The position numbers were made by a program, and so were the translations under genes. Shown here in pieces: positions 10,334 through 64,000 of a stretch of DNA of 64,000 nucleotides. Numbering within the stretch: position 1 is the stretch's first letter; each line of letters begins with the position of its first letter. This DNA is from Octopus vulgaris (taxonomy: Eukaryota): assembly GCA_951406725.2 (NCBI GenBank), contig OX597828.1, positions 63,798,001 through 63,862,000 of the forward strand, given 5' to 3'. Under the pieces are notes generated by a model. It was not told the DNA's origin. It worked only from the letters and a program-made list of their open reading frames with translations, and made no database searches.

Positions 10334-10776
10334 GTAAAACCACCAGCTTCCTCGGCATCAACACCCACGGCGTCCTTGCAAGCATCATCCTCATCGATAT
10401 ATTTATCACGGCCCTACCAGTTCGACTTCTTCACGCATGGATGAGTTCTGTATACGCAGCTCTGTTCAGCATCTTCTGCTTTTTCTATTGGCAAGCCGGT
10501 GGCAAAAACACCAAAGACAAACCGTATATTTACTCGGTCATCGACTTTTCAAACAACTGGGAAATGGCCCTGATTTGTATCTTCTCACTCATTTTTTTCA
10601 TGGGACCACTGTTACACACTTTCCTTTTCTGTTTGCATCTACTGCGGAGAACTATTTATAACCGAATGTCTTGCTTACACCGCGAGAAGACATTGTTACA
10701 CGAACAGGGACTCAGTGAAAATACCGAGATGCAACAAACATCAGACAAAGAGACATTAAATATGAACAGTGTGTAG
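10334..10776 (+). CDS. Protein rolling stone-like, terminal exon
   Basis: CCACCAG acceptor at 10333 and a phase-1 join giving ...HPG-KTTSF. Contains INTHG, hydrophobic helices, P-V-R-L-L-H, YWQAGG...PYIYSVIDF, and TAG stop at 10774-10776. Upstream exons were not found in the window. Confidence 0.85.
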
Positions 10777-24741: not shown

Positions 24742-25478
24742 GTTAGTGAGTTAGTTAGTTGGTTAATTTGGCTCAAAAGCAAATAGCAAGGCCATGTAGG
24801 GAGACATGGAGTTAAGTACAGGGTGGTGTTCATGTAAAGAATTTAGGCCACTTGTGGTCAAGGGAGGCTTTGAACAAAGCGGTCGTCGGCATCTTCACCA
24901 TCTCGTCCGGCAGCTTGTTCCACGGATCCGCAACCCGGACGGAGAAAGCCCCTCTCCTTCGATTGAGATGAAATCGTCGCAGGTAGAGCTTTTCGGAATG
25001 ACCCCGGAGCCGACGCTCTGGAGCAGGAGTGAAGAACAGCTCTTTCGAGAGGTTACACTTTCCGCTTATGATGTTGTGGGCGAGAATGAGATCACCACGG
25101 CGGCGGCGTTTTTCTAGAGAATAAAGGTCGAGCGTCCTCAGCCTTTCTTCATAGGACAAATTTTTGAGACCATGAACCATGCGGGTAGCCAGCTTCTGGA
25201 CTCTTTCGAGATGCTGTATGTCTTTGAGGAGATAAGGAGAAGAGGCTTGAATCCCATACTCCAATATGGGTCTCACCAGCGTGACATAGAGTGGTAGGAA
25301 TATGGCTGCTGTGAGCATTCCGAATGACCGTCGAATCAAGAACAGAACTCCGCGTGCTTTGCTGGCAGCATGGACGCACTGGGCCAAAGGCGAAAAGGAG
25401 GAATCCACCAAGATACCCAGGTCCTTTACCTGATCGGCCCTCTCCAGCAGCAGACGACCCGGCTCGAAATCAAGTTGA
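24742..25478 (-). mobile_element. CR1-type LINE, 5'-truncated 3' end
   Basis: KDLGILVD...LYVTLVRPILEY...LERVQKLATRMV...YEERL...RRRRGDLI...RGHSEKL, with an (AACT)n-like tail. Same family as 59988-61785. Confidence 0.9.
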
Positions 25479-26208
25479 GTGTGTAGGTTATGTTTTATTC
25501 CGTTAGGAACGTGGTAGAATACAGTGTAAAGTTCGTCCACCTTCAGACTTATCCCGTACTATCGGTAGCATTATTATATACTTCCAAGTTTAAATTTGGG
25601 CATTCGTCATGTGAGAATATAAAACTAAAGAAATTGGAGTCAGAAGGAGTACAGTTGGACATTTATTTATTATTCGCTACAATTGTTTCGATGCAACGTA
25701 CTTCTCCAAAAATACAGGTACTTCATTATGCAACTGTTTATTTGCATAATGAGATCCAATTGTTTTCCTCGGGCGATATACGAGTGTTGTCTCCGTTAGT
25801 TTAAAATCTACTTCATGGCCATCTTCTCTGTTTGTCGTAGTTTCAATTTATTAGCGGCTCTCATGGTGCGTGCCGCGAGAGATCGTTTGTCGGGCCGCTA
25901 TGTATGGAAGTGGATGGTACTGGCTGGCATTTAAATGTTCTGTTTGGCTGTATCTCTGATCTGTTCTTCATGGTTGGTTGCACATGTTAATTTCTAAAAC
26001 TGACCATTAGTATTCAGTTTTCGGATACATACACACATCCCCATACAGATACTCACACATACATTCTCACACAAACCCATGTATATATGCCTTTATATAC
26101 ACATACATGCACCCACATGTACATACATACACTTACATTCCTGTACATACGGGTATATACATATCCATATTTCCAACTTTCTCAATTTTATACGCGCACA
26201 CACACACA

Positions 26209-31167: not shown

Positions 31168-32127
31168 TAATAATAATAACAATAATAATAATAATGATAA
31201 TAATAATAATAATGACCTTTTACTGACCATTAACGTCCTTTGTCTCCACCATCTACCGTAGCTATTTATAGACCCAAAGAACATGAATTCTTTAACCAGC
31301 CATTCTCCAACACAATGGAGTGTTGATGGTGGCTGTGGCTACACATAAAACAATGTCATTGAAGATGATGATGGTGATGGTGATGTTGCTGATGATGGTG
31401 ATGGTGGTGAAGATGATAGTTGTCCCTTTCTTTTCGTTTCCTTCTCCGTATTTTATTCTCATTATTTCGAACTAATACAGACACAGTGAGCCTTGAAGAA
31501 AGGAAGAGGAGGAAAGGAAAAAAAAAAAAAAATGTCCGGAGATAAAACTATCAACAAAAAAAATACAGACGAATATAGATCTGCTAGTCTTAAGAAGCGG
31601 CGCTATGAGCAATGCTTACATGTAGTGAACCCTAAACTGACAGATCCATCTCCTAATATAAGAATGGATGCTCGTCATGCTTCAAGGTCAACAAATCAAA
31701 CAATAAACCGCATTGGTCATTGCGCGGATTACAAAAGACCACGTACCCGAAAATTGAACCAAATCCTGATTGAAAAATCAGTTACTGGATCAAATCTTCC
31801 CAGCACACAGGAGCTGGACGAACCCCACAACCGGAATATTCCAACAGATGGCATCCATGCTCATCACCAAATAATCAAAAGAAAAAGAAGGAAAAATGGT
31901 CTAGGGAAGATAATAAAGAAGTTATTGAGGCCTTCTACCATGCCATATATTTCCCCACAGATAAGTCTAGCACTGTACAAGCATACTTAAACTGGAGACA
32001 GAAACACCCTGAAGTAAGACCCTACATAGACAGTAACAAGCTTGCCAATGTTAGAAGAAACATTATAAAAAAGAAATTACTGACTGAAGTAGAGATTGAT
32101 CAGGTTAGACAAGCAATATCGGATAAA

Positions 32128-33018
32128 ATGAACGAAGCTGCAGCTAGAGAAGATAATACAGAGGAAATGATTATAGACCAGCCCAGGGCGGATAAAAACG
32201 AAGAGAGGATTGAAAGAGTTAGTATAAGTGATAGGCAAAGTGAAATACTCCCTGAACCAATCATAAACACTAAGACAGATGAGCATCAAATAGATAAAGA
32301 AAGTCACACAAATATTGACCCAACAGAACTACATGAGCTAAAAAATCAAATCATGATTGAATGGCTGAAAATTAAAGAAACCAGCATGGATGAGCGTGAT
32401 ACACTTCCTAAAATCCGCAACTCTAACCAAAACATGAAAATAATTGGTAAAATCCGGCTTGCACTTAAGGATATAATTTCAGTTAATGATGTTGATATCA
32501 CAAACCTCAACCACCTATACTATGCATCCGCGAAAATCTCAACGATCCTATGTGGTGTAAAGATTAGAAAACGGCAACAGTCCCACAAAAAGCCTTCTTG
32601 GCAAGAGCGTCTGCAACAACAAATTAAAATATTTAGATCTGACATTGAATATTTGAAAAACCTTAAGGCTCACAAGACTACCAAACCTACAAAAACCCCA
32701 AAATTACTGAAAAAATACAATATGAAAACTATACTTGATATTGATGCCACCATAGAAACCATCAAACAAAAGGTATCTGCCAAAGCTGCCCGCATAGCGA
32801 GGTATGAAAAGCGTGTTAGATTTTTCAAGGACAACAACATGTTTAAAAATAACACCAAGAATTTTTACAGGAAGATAGGAAAAACAGCGTTTACTGCAGG
32901 GTCTGTACCATCAAAAGAAGAAGTGCAGAGATTTTGGAATAAAATCTGGGCAGAAGAAAAAACACACAACGAAAAGGCCCCTGGACTGACAGAATATCTA
33001 CAGAACTGGACCCCTTAG
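32128..33018 (+). pseudogene. N-terminal part of the R4/Dong ORF, frameshifted near 32980
   Basis: KPSWQERL...LKKY...KQKVSAKAARIARYEKR...NNMFKNNTKNFYR...FWNKIW is the pre-RT region typical of R4 elements. It continues in another frame as WTDRIS...WKSPGKDKIPNFWL. Confidence 0.85.
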
Positions 33019-33176
33019 AAGAGCAAAAGTGGGAGGGTGTCAAGGTAGAAGATATAAGATCTGCTCTCAGGAGGTCAAGCAAATGGAAGTCTCCAGGAAA
33101 GGATAAAATTCCTAACTTCTGGCTGAATGCCTTCCCAGAGAGCCATGAACTGCTAACAGAACTGTACAATGATGTT

Positions 33177-35342
33177 TTGCAACACCCTAGTAGGATGCCT
33201 CCTTGGCTAGTTAATGGGTTAACATTCCTGCTTCCAAAAAGTGAAGAAACAAATGAACCAAAAAACTATAGACCCATAACCTGCTTAACAACTATGTACA
33301 AAACACTAACATCTGTCCTGACGGAATATACCTATAGTTTTTTAACAGACAGCAGCATATTCCCTAATGAACAGAAAGGATGTAAACGTGGATCCTACGG
33401 CTGTAAAGACCAACTACTCATCAATAAGATGATCTTAGAAGATTGTCACAAACGACACAAAAACTTATCAATAGCCTGGATAGACTATAAAAAGGCTTTT
33501 GATAGCCTACCACATAGCTGGATTAGGAAATGCCTTGAAATGTATAAGATAGCACCAACTCTGCGAAACTTCTTGACTGTAAGTATGAGATCATGGAGAA
33601 CCACACTAACTCTGAACAGTGACAGTGAATCCCTAAATGCTGGTGATGTAAAAATTTCGTGTGGCATTTTCCAGGGTGACTCACTGTCACCACTCCTCTT
33701 TTGTTTATCCTTAATACCTCTCTCAAAGCTGCTCAATGACGCGCAGTACGGGTATAAAATGTTTGATAAAAATATAAATCATCTAGTTTACATGGATGAT
33801 TTAAAGCTTTTTGCAAAAAATGATCAACAACTCAAGGGCTTACTAGCGATAGTCAAACAATTCAGTGACGACATCAGAATGCAATTCGGCCTCGATAAAT
33901 GTGCAAAGGCTACCTTTATCAAAGGAAAAATGACAGAAACATCTAACGTTAACCTTGACCAACAGAATGTCATAAAAGAATTAGACCCAGCGGAGAGCTA
34001 CAAGTACCTAGGGGTAATTGAAGGGAACGGAATAAGGCATTCAGAGATGAAGGAAAGGATCAGGAGAGAATGCTATCGAAGAGTGAGAGCAATACTCAAG
34101 ACAGAGCTGAATGCAAGAAACAGGATCGAAGCGATCAATGCAATAGCTATACCAGTCGTGACTTACAGTTTCAATATTGTTAACTGGTCAATTACTGAAA
34201 TATGTCAGCTCGACAGAAAAATAAGGAAACTGTTGACAATGCATAGAATGCACCACCCTAAGGCAGATACAGAACGACTCTATCTGCCAAGAAAAGAGGG
34301 AGGCCGTGGTCTTTTGCAACTGGCAATAACAATGAAGATTGCTACAATTGGCCTAGACACCTACCTGAAAAACTCTGAGGACTGGATGTTAAAACTTGTC
34401 TCAAAACATGAAAACAAGAAAGCATCATACTCAGTCACAAAACAGGCAAAGGAATATCTAAGTGAATTCCGAATACAACCAATTTCGGAATTAGAGATAG
34501 ATATAGAAGAAACAAGCACAGAAAAAGCTAGGCGAATGAAAACCCGTGCCAAAACTGCGGCCTTAGATATTCTGAATAATAAATGGCAAGAAAAACCTCT
34601 CTATGGCAAATACCCAAAGAGAGCGAATAATGCAGATATCGACAAAGCCCTGACCCATCAATGGCTAATGGCCTCTGGCTTAAAATCTGAAACAGAGGGG
34701 TTTATCATAGCAGCTCAAGATCAATGCCTACCAACAAGAAACTACCAGGCCAACATATTAAAGATCAGAAGCAGTCCAACGTGTCGTGTATGCAAGCAAC
34801 AAAATGAAACCATTGACCATGTGGTCTCCAAGTGCAGTCTTCTAGCGCCTACAGAGTATCTCAACAGGCACGATAGAGCTGCACAATATATTCACTGGGT
34901 AATCTGTAAAAACCTGGATTTGCCCCATGAAAAAAACTGGTGGGAACACAAACCACCCCCAGTGCTTGAAAATGACCACATCTCACTCCTCTGGAACTTC
35001 ACCATTCAAACTGACAGGAAGATAGATGCAAATAGGCCAGACATCATATTGAAAGACTTCAAACAAAGAACATGCCTCCTCATTGATATGACTGTCCCAA
35101 TCGATATAAACGTATCTGTCAAGACCTACCAAAAACTGAGCAAATATAAAGATCTTGAAATAGAAATCAGCAAAATGTGGAAGCTGAAGACAATACCTGT
35201 TGTCATAGGTGCCCTGGGAATGATAGCAAAAGGGGCTGATAGCTACCTAACTCAGATACCAGGAAACCCAAAAATGGCAGAAATTCAAAAGATAGTGCTC
35301 ATGGGAACTGCTCATATCCTACGCAAAATACTCTCTATGTAA
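33177..35342 (+). CDS. R4/Dong reverse transcriptase - CCHC finger - RLE endonuclease (frame open from about 32982)
   Basis: NYRPITCL, DYKKAFDS, GIFQGDSLSPLLF, YMDDLKL, YKYLG, CRVC...ETIDHVVSKC, RHD, RPDI, LIDM, KLSKYKDL. Confidence 0.95.
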   Translation: MQHPSRMPPWLVNGLTFLLPKSEETNEPKNYRPITCLTTMYKTLTSVLTEYTYSFLTDSSIFPNEQKGCKRGSYGCKDQLLINKMILEDCHKRHKNLSIAWIDYKKAFDSLPHSWIRKCLEMYKIAPTLRNFLTVSMRSWRTTLTLNSDSESLNAGDVKISCGIFQGDSLSPLLFCLSLIPLSKLLNDAQYGYKMFDKNINHLVYMDDLKLFAKNDQQLKGLLAIVKQFSDDIRMQFGLDKCAKATFIKGKMTETSNVNLDQQNVIKELDPAESYKYLGVIEGNGIRHSEMKERIRRECYRRVRAILKTELNARNRIEAINAIAIPVVTYSFNIVNWSITEICQLDRKIRKLLTMHRMHHPKADTERLYLPRKEGGRGLLQLAITMKIATIGLDTYLKNSEDWMLKLVSKHENKKASYSVTKQAKEYLSEFRIQPISELEIDIEETSTEKARRMKTRAKTAALDILNNKWQEKPLYGKYPKRANNADIDKALTHQWLMASGLKSETEGFIIAAQDQCLPTRNYQANILKIRSSPTCRVCKQQNETIDHVVSKCSLLAPTEYLNRHDRAAQYIHWVICKNLDLPHEKNWWEHKPPPVLENDHISLLWNFTIQTDRKIDANRPDIILKDFKQRTCLLIDMTVPIDINVSVKTYQKLSKYKDLEIEISKMWKLKTIPVVIGALGMIAKGADSYLTQIPGNPKMAEIQKIVLMGTAHILRKILSM

Positions 35343-38973: not shown

Positions 38974-39403
38974 TATCACTTAGATTGATGAGGGAAGGAT
39001 GACCTCCCTTTGCAAATACCGATAGGGCACAGAAAGTGTGTCAATAGCCAGCTGGAGAAGATGTTCTCCTGGGGCTACAAGCTACAGTAACATCCACCCT
39101 TAGTCGTTAGACATATTTAGATGGCAAATATACTTCACATTGTCCTGCAGTTACTGTCTATACCACGTTCAGAGATTTATTATTGCTTGTTTACACTTTT
39201 TCAAGATTAGTGACGAAAAGTCACTGGAAAAAGGATATAAGTATTTGCATTGGGACCCTTCCATCGAAAACCGGTGATTGACGTGCGGAAGTGTTTGTGT
39301 CGTTTTGTCGGATTTGCGGTTGTGAGTTGAATTTTGTTGATTATTGTTGTTGAAAACTGTTGCGTCGTGTTGAACGTTATAATTGTTGAATTCTTTGTTG
39401 GGT

Positions 39404-40715
39404 ATGCAAGCCCAGACTTATGCGAAAGCAGCAGGCAAAAGCCTGTCTGCGAACGTATTACAGTTAAAAGAAATAATTATCGAGAAAGAAAATCTGAGGA
39501 AATACTATGACAGCTTCAAAAAGGAAGGAGACTGTCTGAGGGTTACAACACGTGAAGACGAAGTTAAAAAAGCAGAGAAAAAAACCATAACATACAGAAC
39601 ATGGAATGTGGTCTCAAAAAGAATAGAAGTGGCAGAAGTAGAAGAGATTGAAAAATGTTTACAAGAAATAAAAGGAAGAACTACCTTCTACAATAGAGAT
39701 AGAAAATACGCTACAGTAGAAGTTCGCTTCGAAAATGAAGATGAAGCAAAAAGGAACGCAACGACAGCGTTGAGATCAGAAAAATGGGTATTACTTCCTA
39801 CTTATTGCGGTAGAAGAGCGGCGAGGATACGAATAAGCAAAATTCCACCGGAACTTGATACCGAAAGAATAGTAACTGCAATAATTTACAACTGCAAGGA
39901 GAACGTTGACATACTCAAGGTGGAAAAGTCGAATGAAATAAACTGGTGGGGTTATGCGGTGGAAATCCTAATCCACATAACCATGCCAGATTTGTACAAC
40001 ATCGCGGAGGAGTTGGTGTTCCCCGATGAGACACGACTGAGAGTCGTGGTGGAGGGGAAACCTCCAGTGTGTTATAAATGTAAGAGAAGAGGGCACATGA
40101 AGGATGTGTGTCCTTAAAGAGAAATACAAGAGAAAAAGATAACACTGGAGGAAGGAATAAAAACTTTGACAGAGGAGTTAGAAAGAAAGAATGTAGAACT
40201 ACAAGCAGAAGAAGAAATCATGACAAAAGATATGGAAAGTGACGACGAGTTTGTGAAGGAGAAAGAAGAGGAAAGAACAGAAGGAAAAGAGGATAGAAAG
40301 CGAACACTAGTGGAATCACCACCCAAAGACCAAAAAAAAAAAAAAACTAAAAAGAAGTATGCCGACGAGACAGAGAATCGAACACACGAAGGGAGAGATA
40401 CAGCAACTAAAGTGAGTGAAGGTCCAACGTGGGAGGAAACGGAAAAATGGTCAACAAAATTGGAAGAATGTCTGAAAACATGCAAGGAAGGAGGAAGACC
40501 CAAAGGAAGGAATCTCAGAGCTGTAATGTTGCACAAAAAGATAAAGAAATTGAGAAAAAATTAGCAATAATAAAAAATCTAACGAGAGTGAAATTGAACC
40601 CGAGGATATACGATAACCAAATAAAGGCTGCAATAGTGGAAAAAGAGACGGTAAATAAATTAATAAATTTGTTTTCAAATACAGCTGTGTCCATAGCGCA
40701 TTACGTTCGATATGA
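39404..40715 (+). pseudogene. L1/Tx1-type ORF1 (gag-like zinc knuckle) with in-frame stop at 40115 and later frameshift; no ORF2 seen
   Basis: MQAQTYAKAA start, RRM-like ATVEVRFENEDEAK / RIRISKIPPEL, CX2CX4HX4C knuckle CYKCKRRGHMKDVC and a charged tail. T-rich 5'UTR from 39288. Confidence 0.75.
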
Positions 40716-53876: not shown

Positions 53877-54125
53877 CGACTCTCACAATATTCCGACTCT
53901 CACAATATTCCGACTCTCACAATACTCCGACTCTCACAATATTCCGACTCTCACAATACTCCGACTCTCACATTATTCCGACTCTCACAATATTCCGACT
54001 CTCACATTATTCCGACTCTCACATTATTCCGACTCTCACATTATTCCGACTCTCACAATATTCCGACTCTCACATTATTCCGACTCTCACATTATTCCGA
54101 CTCTCACAATATTCCGACTCTCACA
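53877..54125. repeat. 17-bp minisatellite CGACTCTCACA(A/T)TA(T/C)TC, about 14.6 copies
   Basis: Contiguous units with no spacers. Confidence 0.95.
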
Positions 54126-55600
54126 AAAAAAACAACAAAAAATGGTAGAATAGATTTATAGCCAAAATAATTTGATTAATCTAAACCAAAATGAGTGAAG
54201 AGAATTCAATGACCAGTGGATTGGATTTGAACATATATATATATATACATATATATACATATATATAGATATATATATATATATACATATATGTACATAT
54301 ATATACATATATATACATATACAGTCACACATATACGCGTGCCCACACAAATATATATATTTATACACACACATGCCTTCAATGAACAATCAACAAACCC
54401 ATATTAATATTCTACTTCTATTCAATATTCTCTCCAGTCTTCGCGACAATCTTGGCAGAATTTCGAATTAGGTGCCGCAACTTTGTTTCTTTCTTCTTTC
54501 TCTCTCTCTATTTTCTTTTTTCTTTCTTTCTTTCTTTCTTTTTTTGTTTCTCATCACTTGTATTAATATATGATGAAGAAAGTTAATTTTCACGAGAAAA
54601 CAGATCAAAGATTTTGTGATGCAGGCAATGGCTCTTCTGTGAGAAACACTTCTGCCCACGGCTGCCGCCTTCTCTCCAAACACTAAGGCTATCCTCCTCT
54701 TTAATGGTTGGTCAACTTTGGCAAAATTCCTGACTCTTGTGATTATCTCCCCTTATCAAGTAAGCTCATCTTAATTGACATTTGGTAATTGGGACACATT
54801 TTTGAGAAACGGAAATCTGTTTGATGAAGCAAGAATTTTTGTTGTGATATTTGATGCATAAACAAGTATTCCTCTCCCTCACTCTCTCTATATAATGTAT
54901 GTATGTATGTATGTATGTATGTATGTATGTATGTATGTATGTATGTATGTGTGTGTGTATGTATGTATGTCGCTGACACGTGATGAGCGGGGATCCATCT
55001 TTCTGACTACTACCTTCACAAAGATTAAACGGGCTTATCCTGTCTCTTCATAAGCTCGTCTCCTCAAACGTTCAGAATAATTTTTCCATCGTCTTGGCTT
55101 AACAGCCCCCATCGTTTGTTTTTGCTGTTTTGTTCTCATTGTTCTGTCTTTTACTGTTTTTACTTCTTTTATTATTTTTACTGTTTTGTTCTCACTGTCC
55201 TGTTCTTGTTACCACTTTCACACTCTGCAAAAAATCTCAAATTTTGTTTAATTTGCTTTGCGGGAAGAACTGTTTCAAAGAAGTCGCGTCTTGTCCTTGT
55301 CTTCGAAACGTGGAGTAGATGAAACAGGGACAACTGAAGAAGGGGAATATTCTTTATGTTGTATGCCTCGTTTTTCTGGTTTTTTGTTGTTGTTTGAAAA
55401 AAGTTCGTTTCTATGGTTTGTTTTTATGTTTTCGTTTCTCATTGTGTTCAACGTCTTTTTGACATCCTGTACCCATATATGCATGTGTATATACATATAT
55501 ATATATGTAGGTATGTACATATATGTATGTATATATGCATATATTTATATATTATTTATATTATATGATCGAACGCCACGCATCCTTTTTCAAGTAGGTT

Positions 55601-57444: not shown

Positions 57445-58051
57445 GGTATTAACTAAGTAGATCCACTCACATATTTCCATAAAACAGTAAATGCAAACAT
57501 ACATATAATTATATCCAGATAGAGAATGTAATATTTCATAAGGTACATAATTCATATGACACCGTATTTTTCGTAAACATAATATTTTATAACTAAAAAG
57601 TCCGCTAACTTGACCGCTATATATATATGTATATACATACATGTATATATACATATATATATATATATAGAAGTATATATATATGTATAGATATATATAT
57701 AAGTATATATATATATATATATATATGTACATATACAACATATTGAATATATATTCCATATATTTTTGAAATATATTTCATATATATTGCATATATATTT
57801 CACATCCTTCTTCAGCACAGCTTTCCATTGAAAAAGATTTATCATAGATTTATCAAATGCTACGTACCTCAAACCTTCTGACCATGCGACATCAAAATAT
57901 TTGAAGAAAGTGAGCAAAGGCTAAATCTACATAGACGTTTGAATTCATAAATCTTCCCTCCAAAATTCTGCCATGCGCATTACAAAAATAGGTTGTCAAA
58001 GGGAGTGAAAAATCCAAATAGTAATATAATGAAATCTTTTTCAATGGAAAG

Positions 58052-58162
58052 CTGTGCTGAAGAAGGATGTGAAATATATATGCAATATATATGAAATATA
58101 TTTCAAAAATATATGGAATATATATTCAATATGTTTATAATCCAGAAACATGATGTTCACAG
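58052..58162 (+). ncRNA. Hammerhead ribozyme, tandem copy 1
   Basis: ctgtg CTGAAGA a-ggat-[about 70-nt AT-rich]-atcc-a GAAA cat-g-atGTT cacag. Perfect 5-bp stem I, GUU site. Confidence 0.8.
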
Positions 58163-58669
58163 ATAACCGCCAGACTTCGTATTCGTTATCTATTCCTTCT
58201 GTTTTGCATATGTGAATTACAGGGTCTGTCATGCCCGGAGTCCAACTTTGATAGAAATAAGCATTCTTGACTGCTATTTCTATTTTTTCGGTATGCGGTC
58301 AAGCAACCTGTTTTGCCTGTCCCTTTTTCTTATATACAATATATATACTGAACTTTACAGAAGTTCCTGCCGGTAATCGGCTATATTTACATACCGAATT
58401 CTACCAGTAAATAATTGGGGTTTTTTTAAAAGCCTTTATAGAAATTATTTACTCTTATCATTATATTACTATTTGGATTTTTCACTCCCTTTGACAACCT
58501 ATTTTTGTAATGCGCATGGCAGAATTTTGGAGGGAAGATTTATGAATTCAAACGTCTATGTAGATTTAGCCTTTGCTCACTTTCTTCAAATATTTTGATG
58601 TCGCATGGTCAGAAGGTTTGAGGTACGTAGCATTTGATAAATCTATGATAAATCTTTTTCAATGGAAAG

Positions 58670-58780
58670 CTGTGCTGAAGAAGGATGTGAAATATATATG
58701 CAATATATATGAAATATATTTCAAAAATATATGGAATATATATTCAATATGTTTATAATCCAGAAACATGATGTTCACAG
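58670..58780 (+). ncRNA. Hammerhead ribozyme, tandem copy 2
   Basis: Same sequence as 58052-58162, 618 nt downstream. Confidence 0.8.
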
Positions 58781-59195
58781 ATAACCGCCAGACTTCGTAT
58801 TCGTTATCTATTCCTTCTGTTTTGCATATGTGAATTACAGGGTCTGTCATGCCCGGAGTCCAACTTTGATAGAAATAAGCATTCTTGACTGCTATTTCTA
58901 TTTTTTCGGTATGCGGTCAAGCAACCTGTTTTGCCTGTCCCTTTTTCTTATATACAATATATATACTGAACTTTACAGAAGTTCCTGCCGGTAATCGGCT
59001 ATATTTACATACCGAATTCTACCAGTAAATAATTGGGGTTTTTTTAAAAGCCTTTATAGAAATTATTTACTCTTATCATTATATATGTACATATACATAT
59101 ATATATATAGAAGTATATATATGTATAGATATATATAAGTATATATATATATATATATATAAGTATATATATATATATATATACTTATATATATA

Positions 59196-59770
59196 TAAAT
59201 GAAAGAATGGAGTTGAACGACGAATTAACAAAATTCCTTTATTTTATTTTCGACATATGTTTCGAAGGCTGCATATTCCTAATTTCGAAGGAATAAGGGG
59301 TGCATTATACCACCTTCTCATCAGGAAAAGTAAGGAACTTATGTCAGCATCAAGATGCACAAAATTTTTTTAGATGACTGCCCACACGGAGCCCACAGCG
59401 ATAATGAGTGTTTCTTTAAAATATGTGGGCAGTCATCTAAAAATTTTGTACATCTTGATGCTGACATAAGTTCCTTACTTTTCCTGATGAGAAGGCGGCA
59501 TAATGCACCCCTTATTCCTTCGAAATTAGGAATATGCAGCCTTCGAAACATATGTCGAAAATAAAATAAAGGAATTTTGTTAATTCGTCGTTCAACTCCA
59601 TTCTTTCATTTATTTGTATTTAAAAAAACACACAAATTTCCACACGATAGCACGTGATCTCTGCCCTAGGCATGTAGCTTCAACAGTGTTTTTCTGACGT
59701 GAATTTGCTACCCAGGTATCGGTTAACCGAATTATCCATAATAAGATAATTCATTCAACTACTCAATTAT

Positions 59771-59987: not shown

Positions 59988-61785
59988 GTTAGTTAGTGAG
60001 TTAATTCTTTGGCTCAAAAAGCAAAAAGCAAGGCCATGTAGGGGGACATGGAGTTATGTACAAGGTGGTGTTCAGGTAAAGATTTCAGGCCACTTGTGGT
60101 CAAGGGAGACTTTGAACCGAGCGGTCGTCTTCATCTTCACCATCTCGTCCGGCAGCTTATTCCACGGATCCGCAACACGAACGGAGAAAGCCCCTCTCCT
60201 TCGATTGAGATGAAATCGTCGCAGATAGTGCTTTTCGGAATGACCTCGCAGCCGACGCTCTGGAGCAGGAGTGAAGAACAGCTCTTTCGAGAGGTTACAC
60301 TTCTCCGCTTATGATGCTGTGAGCAAGAATGAGATCACCACGGCGTCGTCGTTTTTCTAGAGAATAAAGGTCGAGCGTCTTCAGCCTTTCTTCTTAAGAC
60401 AAATTCTTGAGACCAAGAACCATGCGGGTAGTCAGCTTCTGGATTCTTTCGAGATGCTGTATGTCTTTGAGGAGATAAGGAGAAGAGGCTTGAATCCCGT
60501 ACTCCAATATGGGTCTAACCAGCGTGACATAGAGCGGTAGGAATATGGCTGCTGTGAGCATTCCGAATGACCGTCGAATCAAGAACAGAACTCCGCGTGC
60601 TTTGTTGGCAGCATGGACGCACTGGGCCGAAGGTGAAAAGAAGGAATCCACCAAGATACCCAGGCCCTTTAGCTGATCGGTCCTCTCCAGCAGCAGACGA
60701 CCCGGCTCAAAATCAAGTTGAGTTGCAGGAGGAGAGCCAACAGGCAGATGACAGCACTTTGACACGTTCAGACACAGGTCCCATTCGTTAGACCATCTCC
60801 AAACTTGGTGGAGGCATCGACGAAGATCCTCTATATCACCGCGAGGAGCGACCAGTTTGACATCGTCGGCAAATAGAAGGGTGTGTTGCGTGAGGTCGTC
60901 GGGCAAGTCATTTATGAAGACTAAGAACAATAAGGGCCCAGGCACTGAACCTTGGGGCACGCCACTGCTCGCACTGGAGACGTCGGACCGCGAACCATTA
61001 ACTTGGACTTGGAAGGAGCGATCTGAGAGGAAGACACCAACCCATCGTACAATATCCGGATGGAAACTATATGCTTGAAGCTTGACAAGTAATAGGCGGT
61101 GGTTTACCGAGTCAAAAGCTTTGATCCAGCATAGATGGCAGCTGCCCAGACCGATGCCTTGTCGGATATTCAACATGTTGCGATAGAAAACAATCTTCAG
61201 CCACGTCAAGAAGGGCCTGGCCGAACCGGGAAGATGATGCACAAATTGATGCGGACCAATCGATCGTGGGAGCGTTGAAGTTTCCTAATATCAAACAGTC
61301 ATGAGAAGCTGAAACGAATCTTATCGCTTCGAGTAAATGAGCATCGTCCTGGGGGTCGGCAAGAGGCGGCCTGTAGACAGCTAACACGGGAAAGCAAAAC
61401 CCGGATAGGCTCAGCTTGCAATAGACGGCATCGAATTTTGTTGCAGGTTGAGCATTAGTGGGTAGAATACCGCTGGATGGTTTGAGATCAGATTTAGCAT
61501 ACACAGCAACACCTCCACCTCGCCTTTTTTCTCTGTCACATCTGAAGAGGGCGTAGCCCTGTAGGTAGATTTCTGAGTCCTTTACTGCTGGAGTCAGCCA
61601 AGTCTCGGTGATAGCTATCACATCTGGGGAATCACGCATGGCCAGTGTAAATAGTTCGCTGAACTTTGGAAATAAGGAGCACGAGTTTGAATAGCCGATG
61701 CTAAGCTGTGAAGTTTGAGGGGCGGGAATTGGGGAACAATCAGAATAAGGGGTATCAGAGATAGCATTGTTGACGGGGGTATCTA
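59988..61785 (-). mobile_element. CR1-type LINE ORF2 relic (APE endonuclease + RT) with internal deletion
   Basis: EN motifs [34 protein letters not shown] motifs [28 protein letters not shown]. Nonsense codon at 60394 and an (AACT)n-like tail. Confidence 0.92.
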
Positions 61786-61990
61786 CATATATATATGTAT
61801 ATACATATACATGTATATACATATATATATATGTATATACATATACATGTATATATATACATATACATGTATATATATACATATATATGTATATATACAT
61901 GTATATATAAAAGTATTTATACATATATGTATATATAAATATATATATATATACATATATATGTATATATATATATGTATATATATGTAC

Positions 61991-62047
<57 letters not shown>

Positions 62048-62438
62048 GTATATATATACACACACATACTCTTGCGTACACACACTCTCACAATATAGGG
62101 CATCCGTCGATTGTCTAAAAGTCCCATTTTAGAGCCAGTAGGCCAAGGACTATCGATTCTCCCCTGAGACTAAAAAAGGAAACGTAAAAGGAAAGAAAGG
62201 GAATGGAGTATGCGTAAAGGAGCGCGAAGGAGTAACTTTGGTTGGTTTCTTACAGAGAAAGGGAGCAGGCAGTAAGGGCTTGAAATTCGAATCTACCATG
62301 TATGCGCGCGCGCACACATACTCACGTCACACACAACACTTCGTATATGAAATAAACATTCACACAAAGGCTAGTTTCATTTCAAAAAGATTTATATATG
62401 TATATATATTTGTGCGTGTGCACATATTTATCTATCTT

Positions 62439-62739: not shown

Positions 62740-64000
62740 ATGTCGAGAAATTTTATCGTAGAACGCTGGTCGCGTTCTTTTATGGACCAGCATTTTCCTA
62801 GTCTGGAAACGCTAGGAGAAAAAATGAACGTATGCACGCAAAGTGCAAACCTGAATGACGTGGTAGTGAACGCTGCAACCACTTGCGGTAACAGCCCTGT
62901 CCCCACCACCACCACCACCACCACCACTAACAACAACAACAACGAGACTACTACAGCTACCACCACCACCACCTCCACCACCACCACAACGACCAACATA
63001 AATGATAAAATGAAACTCACGCGAATACTATAAGAAAAACAAAAACAACAAGAACAACAATAAAAATAAACTATCTAATAGTGAAGATGTTAATATAAAA
63101 AAATCAACAGCACCAGTAAATTTCGCTGACACTCTGCGTCAGAAGAAAGAAATAGTAACATTTACAAATGAAGAGCTAATAGAAACGAGAGCTCTCTTTA
63201 TAACCCGTGGGCAAGATTTAGTGCTGCATACACCTCAACACATAAAGGAACAAATAGAAAATAAGACAATTATATATAAAATTATAAGAAAAAACAAAAA
63301 ACAAAATGAACAGATTACAAAAACAGATATAGGAAAATGTTTAAAAAAAATATTGAAAAAAAGAATATATAAACTGGGGTCCCCAGTTTAACGCAGTAGT
63401 GGTCCGCTTCCCTAACCAGGAAGTGGCAAAAGCTCACTCTACCGAGTCTTTGGAAAATGATGATATCAAAATGGTACCTTATTTCAAAGGCCAGAGAGTG
63501 AGTAGAATTACTATTAAAAATGTACCCCCCGAGATCCCGAACAAATGGATAACAGGGGCAATCTGTTACCATTTGAAAAAGATCAATATTTTAGAAACCG
63601 CCGTGTACCTAAACGACAATCGGGGTGGAAAAACAATAGTAGTGACCATCCAGATTGAGGGGGCCTCTATCGAGAACGTACCCGATAGGATCCACCTAGA
63701 AAATGGGCAAAGCCTATATGTTGTGGCAGAAGGCAAAAAGCCTAGATGCTACAACTGTGGCAGCCCAGAGCATTTAATTGCCAAGTGCACTCTAGCACAG
63801 AAAAAACAAGAAAGAACAAATCAGAAAACAAATAAAATACCCTTGTTGCCAACACCAACACCAACACACTCAATTATGGAACAATGCTAAGAAGAAAAAC
63901 AACAAACCAGCAAACAAACCCCAACAACATCACCAAGAAAAGAAACAGTACCAACAAAATCACCGTTGACGACGCAACCAATTCATCATGCTGAACCAAA
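62740..64000 (+). pseudogene. Second L1/Tx1-type ORF1 relic (frameshifted), runs off the window
   Basis: NFADTL...RGQDL...IENKTIIY, VVRFPNQEVAK, RITIKNVPPEI and VVAEGKKPRCYNCGSPEHLIAKC are colinear with the 39404 ORF1. Confidence 0.75.

Follow-up and report, generated by a model that had tools for sequence, protein, structure and literature searches.

What kind of element places two hammerhead ribozymes exactly one repeat unit apart in octopus DNA, and how did it come to lie there? In the stretch of Octopus vulgaris DNA that we analyzed (64,000 nucleotides of contig OX597828.1, hereafter the window), a sequence-only reading had proposed a candidate retrozyme at 57738..59085, consisting of 1.7 apparently identical copies of a 618-nt unit, each with an intact CUGAAGA/GAAA hammerhead and a GUU site, lacking a real open reading frame (ORF), flanked by (TA)n and recently inserted. 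The repeat structure was as described: the direct part comprises 1,053 nt, or 1.70 units of 618 nt, with an overlap of 435 nt that is an exact direct repeat at an offset of 618 (58032-58466 = 58650-59084, 0 mismatches), and it carries two type I hammerheads 618 nt apart. Six-frame translation of the circularized unit found no stop-free stretch of 80 codons, and (TA)n-type sequence borders the insertion on both sides. Overlooked at that stage were a 296-nt piece at 57737-58032 that is a perfect inverted copy of 58458-58753, placed head to head with the direct part, and a target-site duplication of 12 nt (up to 18 nt counting ambiguous ends) around the whole insertion (Table 1).

Only the 5' half of a hammerhead is present in the inverted piece, where the core lacks its GAAA portion; the outer end of the piece falls within the AU-rich helix II, which is atypical for a start site. 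Since only 20 nt of sense sequence lie upstream of stem I of hammerhead 1, this locus would not itself need to be transcribed across both cleavage sites. A bacterial promoter scan stayed at chance level, with a promoter model that is bacterial and irrelevant to an octopus genome. Two copies that are 100% identical and sited between microsatellites could raise the suspicion of an assembly artefact, but the unique junctions and target duplication at this locus, together with many loci that have the same architecture but differing units, make such an origin of the duplication very improbable.

Several other features share the window. Adjoining the element is a second fold-back insertion (59185-59623) with 185-nt arms that are 97% complementary and carry one minimal hammerhead-like motif each (CUGAUGA at 59484 on the plus strand and at 59324 on the minus strand); it is unrelated to the 618-nt unit, and the same end also occurs at another locus (L071). 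Two long overlapping frames of 414 and 799 aa at 31774-35342 belong to a reverse-transcriptase LINE, which we take to be RTE-like, and LINE fragments lie on the minus strand (24830-25558 and 60394-62128) and on the plus strand (39383-40564 and 63014-63890), presumably CR1-like reverse transcriptase pieces together with two zinc-knuckle ORF1-like frames. The probable last exon of a membrane protein gene (10400-10776, plus strand) and a 17-bp minisatellite (53877-54126; 14.7 copies, 95% matches) were also seen.

Table 1. Features of the 618-nt element, in window positions; position 1 of the unit corresponds to 58158
Feature	Positions	Strand	Remarks
Target-site duplication, left copy	57725..57736	.	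12-nt core; 57720-57737 with ambiguous ends
Inverted piece	57737..58032	-	Unit positions 301-596; head to head with direct part
Direct part	58032..59084	+	Unit positions 493-618, whole unit, then 1-309
Type I hammerhead 1	58052..58162	+	Predicted cut after 58157
Cut-to-cut monomer	58158..58775	+	618 nt, non-coding, GC 32.5%
Left arm of predicted rod	58173..58244	+	Unit 16-87
Motif common to all sister families	58269..58299	+	Last part pairs with 58390-58398 in predicted fold
Minor fixed 3' end	58340..58347	+	Unit 186-198; 20 of 92 segments
Major fixed 3' end	58461..58472	+	Unit 304-315; 47 of 92 segments; unpaired in predicted circle
Right arm of predicted rod	58474..58556	+	Unit 317-399; beyond genomic 3' end
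Type I hammerhead 2	58670..58780	+	Identical to hammerhead 1; predicted cut after 58775
Target-site duplication, right copy	59085..59096	.	Followed by (TA)n-type sequence

The family and its sisters in the octopus genome

The 618-nt repeat is not a product of chance. Across the 2.8-Gb, microsatellite-rich genome, exact matches number 376 for a 20-mer from the hammerhead core and 576 for a 29-mer from the unit's 3' part, with none for either reversed control; the complete monomer gave 1,404 first-look candidates, of which the 40 scored yielded 241 matches, the full-length ones being 96-100% identical. We read all 50 loci represented by the first 100 listed places of the 29-mer (C1 and C2:1-166 Mb, 392 Mb in total), a density that extrapolates to about 350 family loci genome-wide. 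Arrays of this family (family A) reach 13 cleavage sites, and their units fall into subfamilies of 616-623 and 635-644 nt. Copies are 97-100% identical, in support of the proposed recent insertion.

Four sister families (B, D, E, and F), which we reached via a chance neighbor of a Penelope-like element (PLE) locus, share with family A a 30-nt motif that has 3,867 matches in the genome and none in the control. Families B (~610-nt unit; L073, L088) and E (594-nt unit; L166, L205) are non-coding and tandem, family F has a period of 555 derived from coordinates and was partly seen (L160:1600-2345; 40 of 482 candidates scored), and family D is represented by copies seen only in part (L163, L171, L174). 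Their cleavage sites are GUA, GUC, or GUU, and some copies of family D have a U3-A8 core. For family B, tblastn gave no match to an ORF with reverse transcriptase (RT) and GIY-YIG domains that could be tied to the family. No description of these families appeared among the listed papers on octopus hammerhead ribozymes and cephalopod retrozymes, and the main text of PMC13282606 contains neither “ribozyme” nor “retrozyme”; its repeat library, the supplements of the retrozyme preprint (10.64898/2026.07.22.740005), and subscription papers may include them.

The hammerhead and the predicted fold of the unit

In hammerhead 1, stem I is formed by 5 bp between 58052-58056 and 58158-58162, and the core consists of CUGAAGA (58057-58063), GAAA (58145-58148), and GUU (58155-58157). 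Helix III has 3 bp and is near-palindromic with one central mismatch, and helix II is long and AU-rich, with 81 nt between the core halves and a closing stem of four pairs. The ribozyme is atypical in this short helix III, in the 81 nt between the core halves, and in an additional A at either end of helix II, and in a scan of the window no Rfam family, hammerhead families included, reached its gathering score. The core is intact in 103 of the 114 family hammerheads that span it, and in an alignment of 11 hammerheads from the five families 87% of cells were paired and 9 of 15 pairs changed on both sides, compared with 0 of 500 shuffles scoring as high and 21-44% in slid controls, figures that are inflated by related sequences and by a structure drawn from the same alignment. 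The pair between positions 3 and 8 changes from C-G to U-A in family D, and in 7 of the 11 the two bases next to helix II do not pair. Because family F keeps GUU and both extra A residues with different stems I and III, these oddities have been kept and are not lesions.

Some points speak against activity: GUU is a weak cleavage triplet, and stem I forms with a predicted probability of 0.25 in the circle and of 0.01 in the local fold of one precursor window and is absent from another local fold. PLE hammerheads are typified by a base inserted after position 9, by G10.1-C11.1, and by a helix III that is palindromic (PMC4209133), and they cut weakly and as dimers (PMC4209133, PMC6765202); the octopus helix III dimerizes in a predicted cofold. 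The octopus hammerhead resembles these minimal PLE hammerheads in its unpaired base between 9 and 10.1, in G10.1-C11.1, and in a short helix I and a short palindromic helix III suited to dimers, and U3-A8 variants like theirs are found here in family D as well as in the local PLE (PMC4209133). It differs from them in the length of helix II, which is 7-8 bp and followed by G12 in the minimal form, in a second unpaired A before G12, and in U at the cleavage position (PMC4209133). A further PLE family in this genome (L111, L034, L061) has a hammerhead with an unpaired U at either end of helix II, similar to the A/A arrangement here.

Folding of the cut-to-cut monomer gave a z of -6.2 for the sense strand, which carries the hammerhead, and of -2.0 for the antisense strand (20 shuffles), and the circular monomer reached a predicted z of -5.6; by this model the unit would fold as a sense-strand rod. 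In the predicted rod, unit positions 16-87 pair with 317-399 across the major start site, itself unpaired, and since the right arm lies beyond the genomic 3' end, the template would have to extend past that end. At paired sites, widespread changes kept the pair in 6 of 8 cases compared with 22 of 85 for private changes (P = 0.008); with unpaired sites included, shared and private changes showed no difference (P = 0.16). Both strands of family E fold well, and consensus folding of the shared 3' domain returned no covariation term and missed the long helix. Within the right arm, a stretch of about 30 nt (58505-58535) is nearly identical in families A and F, though its pairing strand differs, and is a candidate promoter or protein-binding element.

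Judged on its sequence, the element qualifies as a non-LTR retrozyme of the animal type, as the sequence-only reading had proposed, and the family arrays, the covarying hammerhead, and the co-occurrence of intact Penelope-like elements support that class. As in other animal retrozymes, tandem, non-coding, low-GC units carry one type I hammerhead each, the monomer is highly self-paired (here by prediction), copies range from dimers to multimers, and autonomous PLEs co-occur (PMC7229834, 10.64898/2026.07.22.740005); the GC content of 32.5% lies below the 45% limit used for the class (PMC7229834). The unit, at 618-644 nt, is longer than the ~170-400-nt circles of coral, mussel, and axolotl (PMC7229834), and 618 nt falls within the 51-972-bp range given for retrozymes (10.64898/2026.07.22.740005). 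Unlike the animal retrozymes described, it has 81 nt in helix II, a GUU site, and no homologous pseudo-LTR among the PLE loci that we compared, and the parts of both sources consulted here describe no counterpart of the fixed internal 3' ends, inversions, and target duplication found here (PMC7229834, 10.64898/2026.07.22.740005). Among Xenopus retrozyme dimers, one of nine cut in vitro (10.64898/2026.07.22.740005).

Insertion signature and one template per insertion

The ends of the 92 segments at the 50 loci are distributed in a characteristic manner. At the 3' side, 67 ends fall at two main sites (47 at unit 304-315 and 20 at unit 186-198), 4 at unit 155-158, and 21 elsewhere, and the 5' ends are scattered. 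Multimers with permuted start points, which had been expected elsewhere in the genome, were thus found for the 5' ends only, the 3' ends being fixed at two internal sites. Inverted pieces occur in 33 of the 50 loci, outer 3' ends enter (TA)4 in 74 of 82 cases, and 13 loci have at least two cleavage sites within one segment. In the insertion pattern of PLEs, copies are truncated, form partial tandems, include an inverted copy, and lie in microsatellite targets (PMC8557442), and in vitro a purified PLE protein was found to cleave AT-rich DNA, to extend both strands, and to begin at two internal sites of its RNA (PMC11167929). Fixed internal 3' ends, 5' truncation, an inverted copy, and a (TA)n target together reproduce this signature in family A. 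The likeness extends to PLEs with a C-terminal GIY-YIG domain (Neptune, Hydra), which share 5' truncation, partial tandems, an inverted 5'-truncated copy, a microsatellite target, two internal start sites, and a hammerhead in the repeat; unlike those, the octopus element has no ORF and up to 13 units, and its start sites lie ~120 nt apart, compared with a 30-40-bp tail in PLEs (PMC8557442, PMC11167929). At one locus (L008), the unique flanks of the insertion are mutually reverse-complementary over ~25 nt, constituting an inverted and not a direct duplication.

Copies within a locus share subfamily alleles (7 of 394 comparisons mixed compared with 195 expected; 67 loci), and arms on opposite strands differ in 4 of 184 comparisons, where 64 were expected, so a single template sequence underlies each insertion, including both of its arms. 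Fifteen changes private to single loci are present in every copy of the locus concerned (12 loci), and copies of one locus differ by a median of 0.4% (47 loci, of which 12 show no difference), as against 1.3% for copies of different loci. Given zero differences at the locus in the window and a rate quoted from another species, which makes the estimate a rough one, this insertion would be younger than ~0.6 million years (PMC13282606). Among 129 within-locus differences, only 6 are found with both alleles at three or more loci, indicating that unit-to-unit differences of donor arrays are rarely handed on, with the limited power of 67 of ~350 loci. Taken together, one template per insertion, locus-fixed private changes, and the 6 of 129 fit a reiterated monomer as template. 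An RNA-editing signature was absent from the 155 private changes (A>G 19 versus T>C 20).

Three long arrays show repeating two- and three-unit patterns and must therefore owe at least part of their growth to DNA duplication or to multimeric templates; on account of these patterns, we rejected long arrays as proof of a rolling circle. Such higher-order patterns would also be expected if the family consisted of dispersed Penelope pseudo-LTR remnants that were made tandem by local DNA amplification, as minisatellites are, with no RNA cycle of their own. Local DNA amplification has been offered as an alternative origin of retrozymes, and the route from pseudo-LTR remnants is discussed in the retrozyme preprint (10.64898/2026.07.22.740005). 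However, no coding parent was found among the PLE loci compared, copies continue upstream of the hammerhead into the 3' end of the previous unit and not into an ORF, the arms stand head to head within a target duplication, and changes are strand-specific and preserve pairs, all of which leaves this origin improbable.

The template, a candidate partner, and implications

If RNA is cut by the hammerhead before it is copied, reverse transcription should in some cases end where the template ends, and an end test at the cut site was planned before counting. Of 83 passes that reached unit position 4, 77 continue beyond the cleavage site and 6 end at unit 1-4, compared with 0.56 expected from the overall rate (P = 3e-5) and 1.26 from the local rate at unit 5-60 (P = 0.002), and the density of stops in the 56 nt downstream of the cleavage site is 4x that in the 60 nt upstream. 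Genome-wide, pattern matches numbered 12 at the cut site and 11 and 3 in two control windows; inspection removed as internal rearrangements 1 at the cut site and 6 in the first control window, leaving 11 true ends at unit 1-4 versus 5 and 3 (P = 0.024), an excess with P = 0.20 once four junctions explained by a hairpin just downstream are subtracted. Some cut-site ends carry re-copied first bases (L251, L252, L254), a suggestive resemblance to a polymerase leaving the end of its template. At L252 and L257, the 51 or 11 bases that directly follow the cleavage site were also seen re-copied in short tandem. The stops hint that some RNA is cut, and most templates were continuous across the cleavage site, either uncut or re-joined.

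As to the protein that may have copied them, the genome holds a young PLE in which the 781-aa ORF with RT and GIY-YIG domains is intact in 16 of the 148 matches listed. In a representative copy (L054:768-4471, to ~5500) a 479-aa frame lies upstream of the 781-aa frame; the element carries a minimal U3-A8 hammerhead, has (TA)n at its ends, and seems to have a Neptune-type cysteine linker. The 3' UTR of that copy contains repeated promoter-like boxes. Other, older PLE families were recovered by a GIY-YIG family search and a second endonuclease query, among them a very abundant one (L199:2517-4514; 5,610 candidates) whose GIY-YIG domain is divergent and whose 3' UTR is rich in microsatellites. 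No PLE end homologous to the 618-nt unit was present among the 52 + 15 PLE-bearing loci compared, plus 3 wider ones, in a search that scored 150 of 6,136 and 150 of 5,610 candidates and read fewer. Apparent PLE ends homologous to families A, B, D, and E proved to be separate neighboring insertions or low-complexity matches, and the 618-nt element itself was rejected as an autonomous PLE for want of an RT and GIY-YIG ORF. By age and target, the young PLE family would be the best candidate partner.

Retrozyme movement by PLEs through circular RNA has been proposed and not shown (PMC7229834, 10.64898/2026.07.22.740005). From the sequence evidence above, the 618-nt element is very probably a non-LTR retrozyme that a Penelope-like protein moved in trans, and our preferred explanation, which we hold with modest confidence, includes a circular template. 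We propose that multimeric transcripts of family arrays would be cut by their hammerheads, probably slowly and as dimers, and that the cut-to-cut monomer would be re-joined into a circle folding as a rod. The RT and GIY-YIG endonuclease of an autonomous PLE would then make a staggered cut in (TA)n DNA and prime at a fixed internal AU-rich site of the RNA, at unit 309 or 190, and copying would continue across the joined cleavage site, making a single round or several. A second priming from the other DNA end, on the same template, would often follow, giving a head-to-head inverted piece and a short target duplication.

A serious though less probable alternative keeps the same element and the same Penelope-type machinery and replaces the circle with an uncut linear multimer transcribed from a tandem donor locus, with a hammerhead that cuts rarely or serves turnover or protein binding and with circles that are absent or by-products. 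It likewise predicts the 77 of 83 passes that cross the cleavage site, and it accords with the 37 of 50 loci that have no segment with two sites and with the weak-looking hammerhead core, whose stem I is so seldom formed in the predicted folds. The PLE protein PAc, moreover, inserts unprocessed RNA in vitro and needs no active hammerhead, and no reads ended at the PAc cut site (PMC11167929). Three observations run against an uncut multimer: donor-array unit differences are rarely handed on (the same 6 of 129, with its limited power), 5' ends are in excess at the cut site, and the covariation of the hammerhead is strict. On this balance, we lean toward the circular template.

In other respects, the 618-nt element is another selfish repeat and shows no hint of a function for its host. 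Its interest lies in a young family whose insertion ends, target duplications, and one-template arrays carry the signature of PLEs and whose candidate partner proteins are intact in the same genome, so that hundreds of young copies make an unproven mode of retrozyme movement open to test. The covarying hammerhead variant, which escapes Rfam, widens the known core. More tentatively, and less probably than not, the families, at least five in number, may together constitute a superfamily of long retrozymes (555-644 nt) that are still moving. A Penelope-like protein sharing no sequence with them would carry out rolling reverse transcription of their circular RNA, starting at two fixed internal positions and recognizing a conserved RNA domain, and the hammerhead would be a new, slow variant (GUU site, with a helix II of 35-80 nt flanked by an unpaired A at either end) tuned to let the circle survive. 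If this is true, the insertions would be the first direct genomic record of retrozyme transposition, in which cut and re-joined templates would both be visible.
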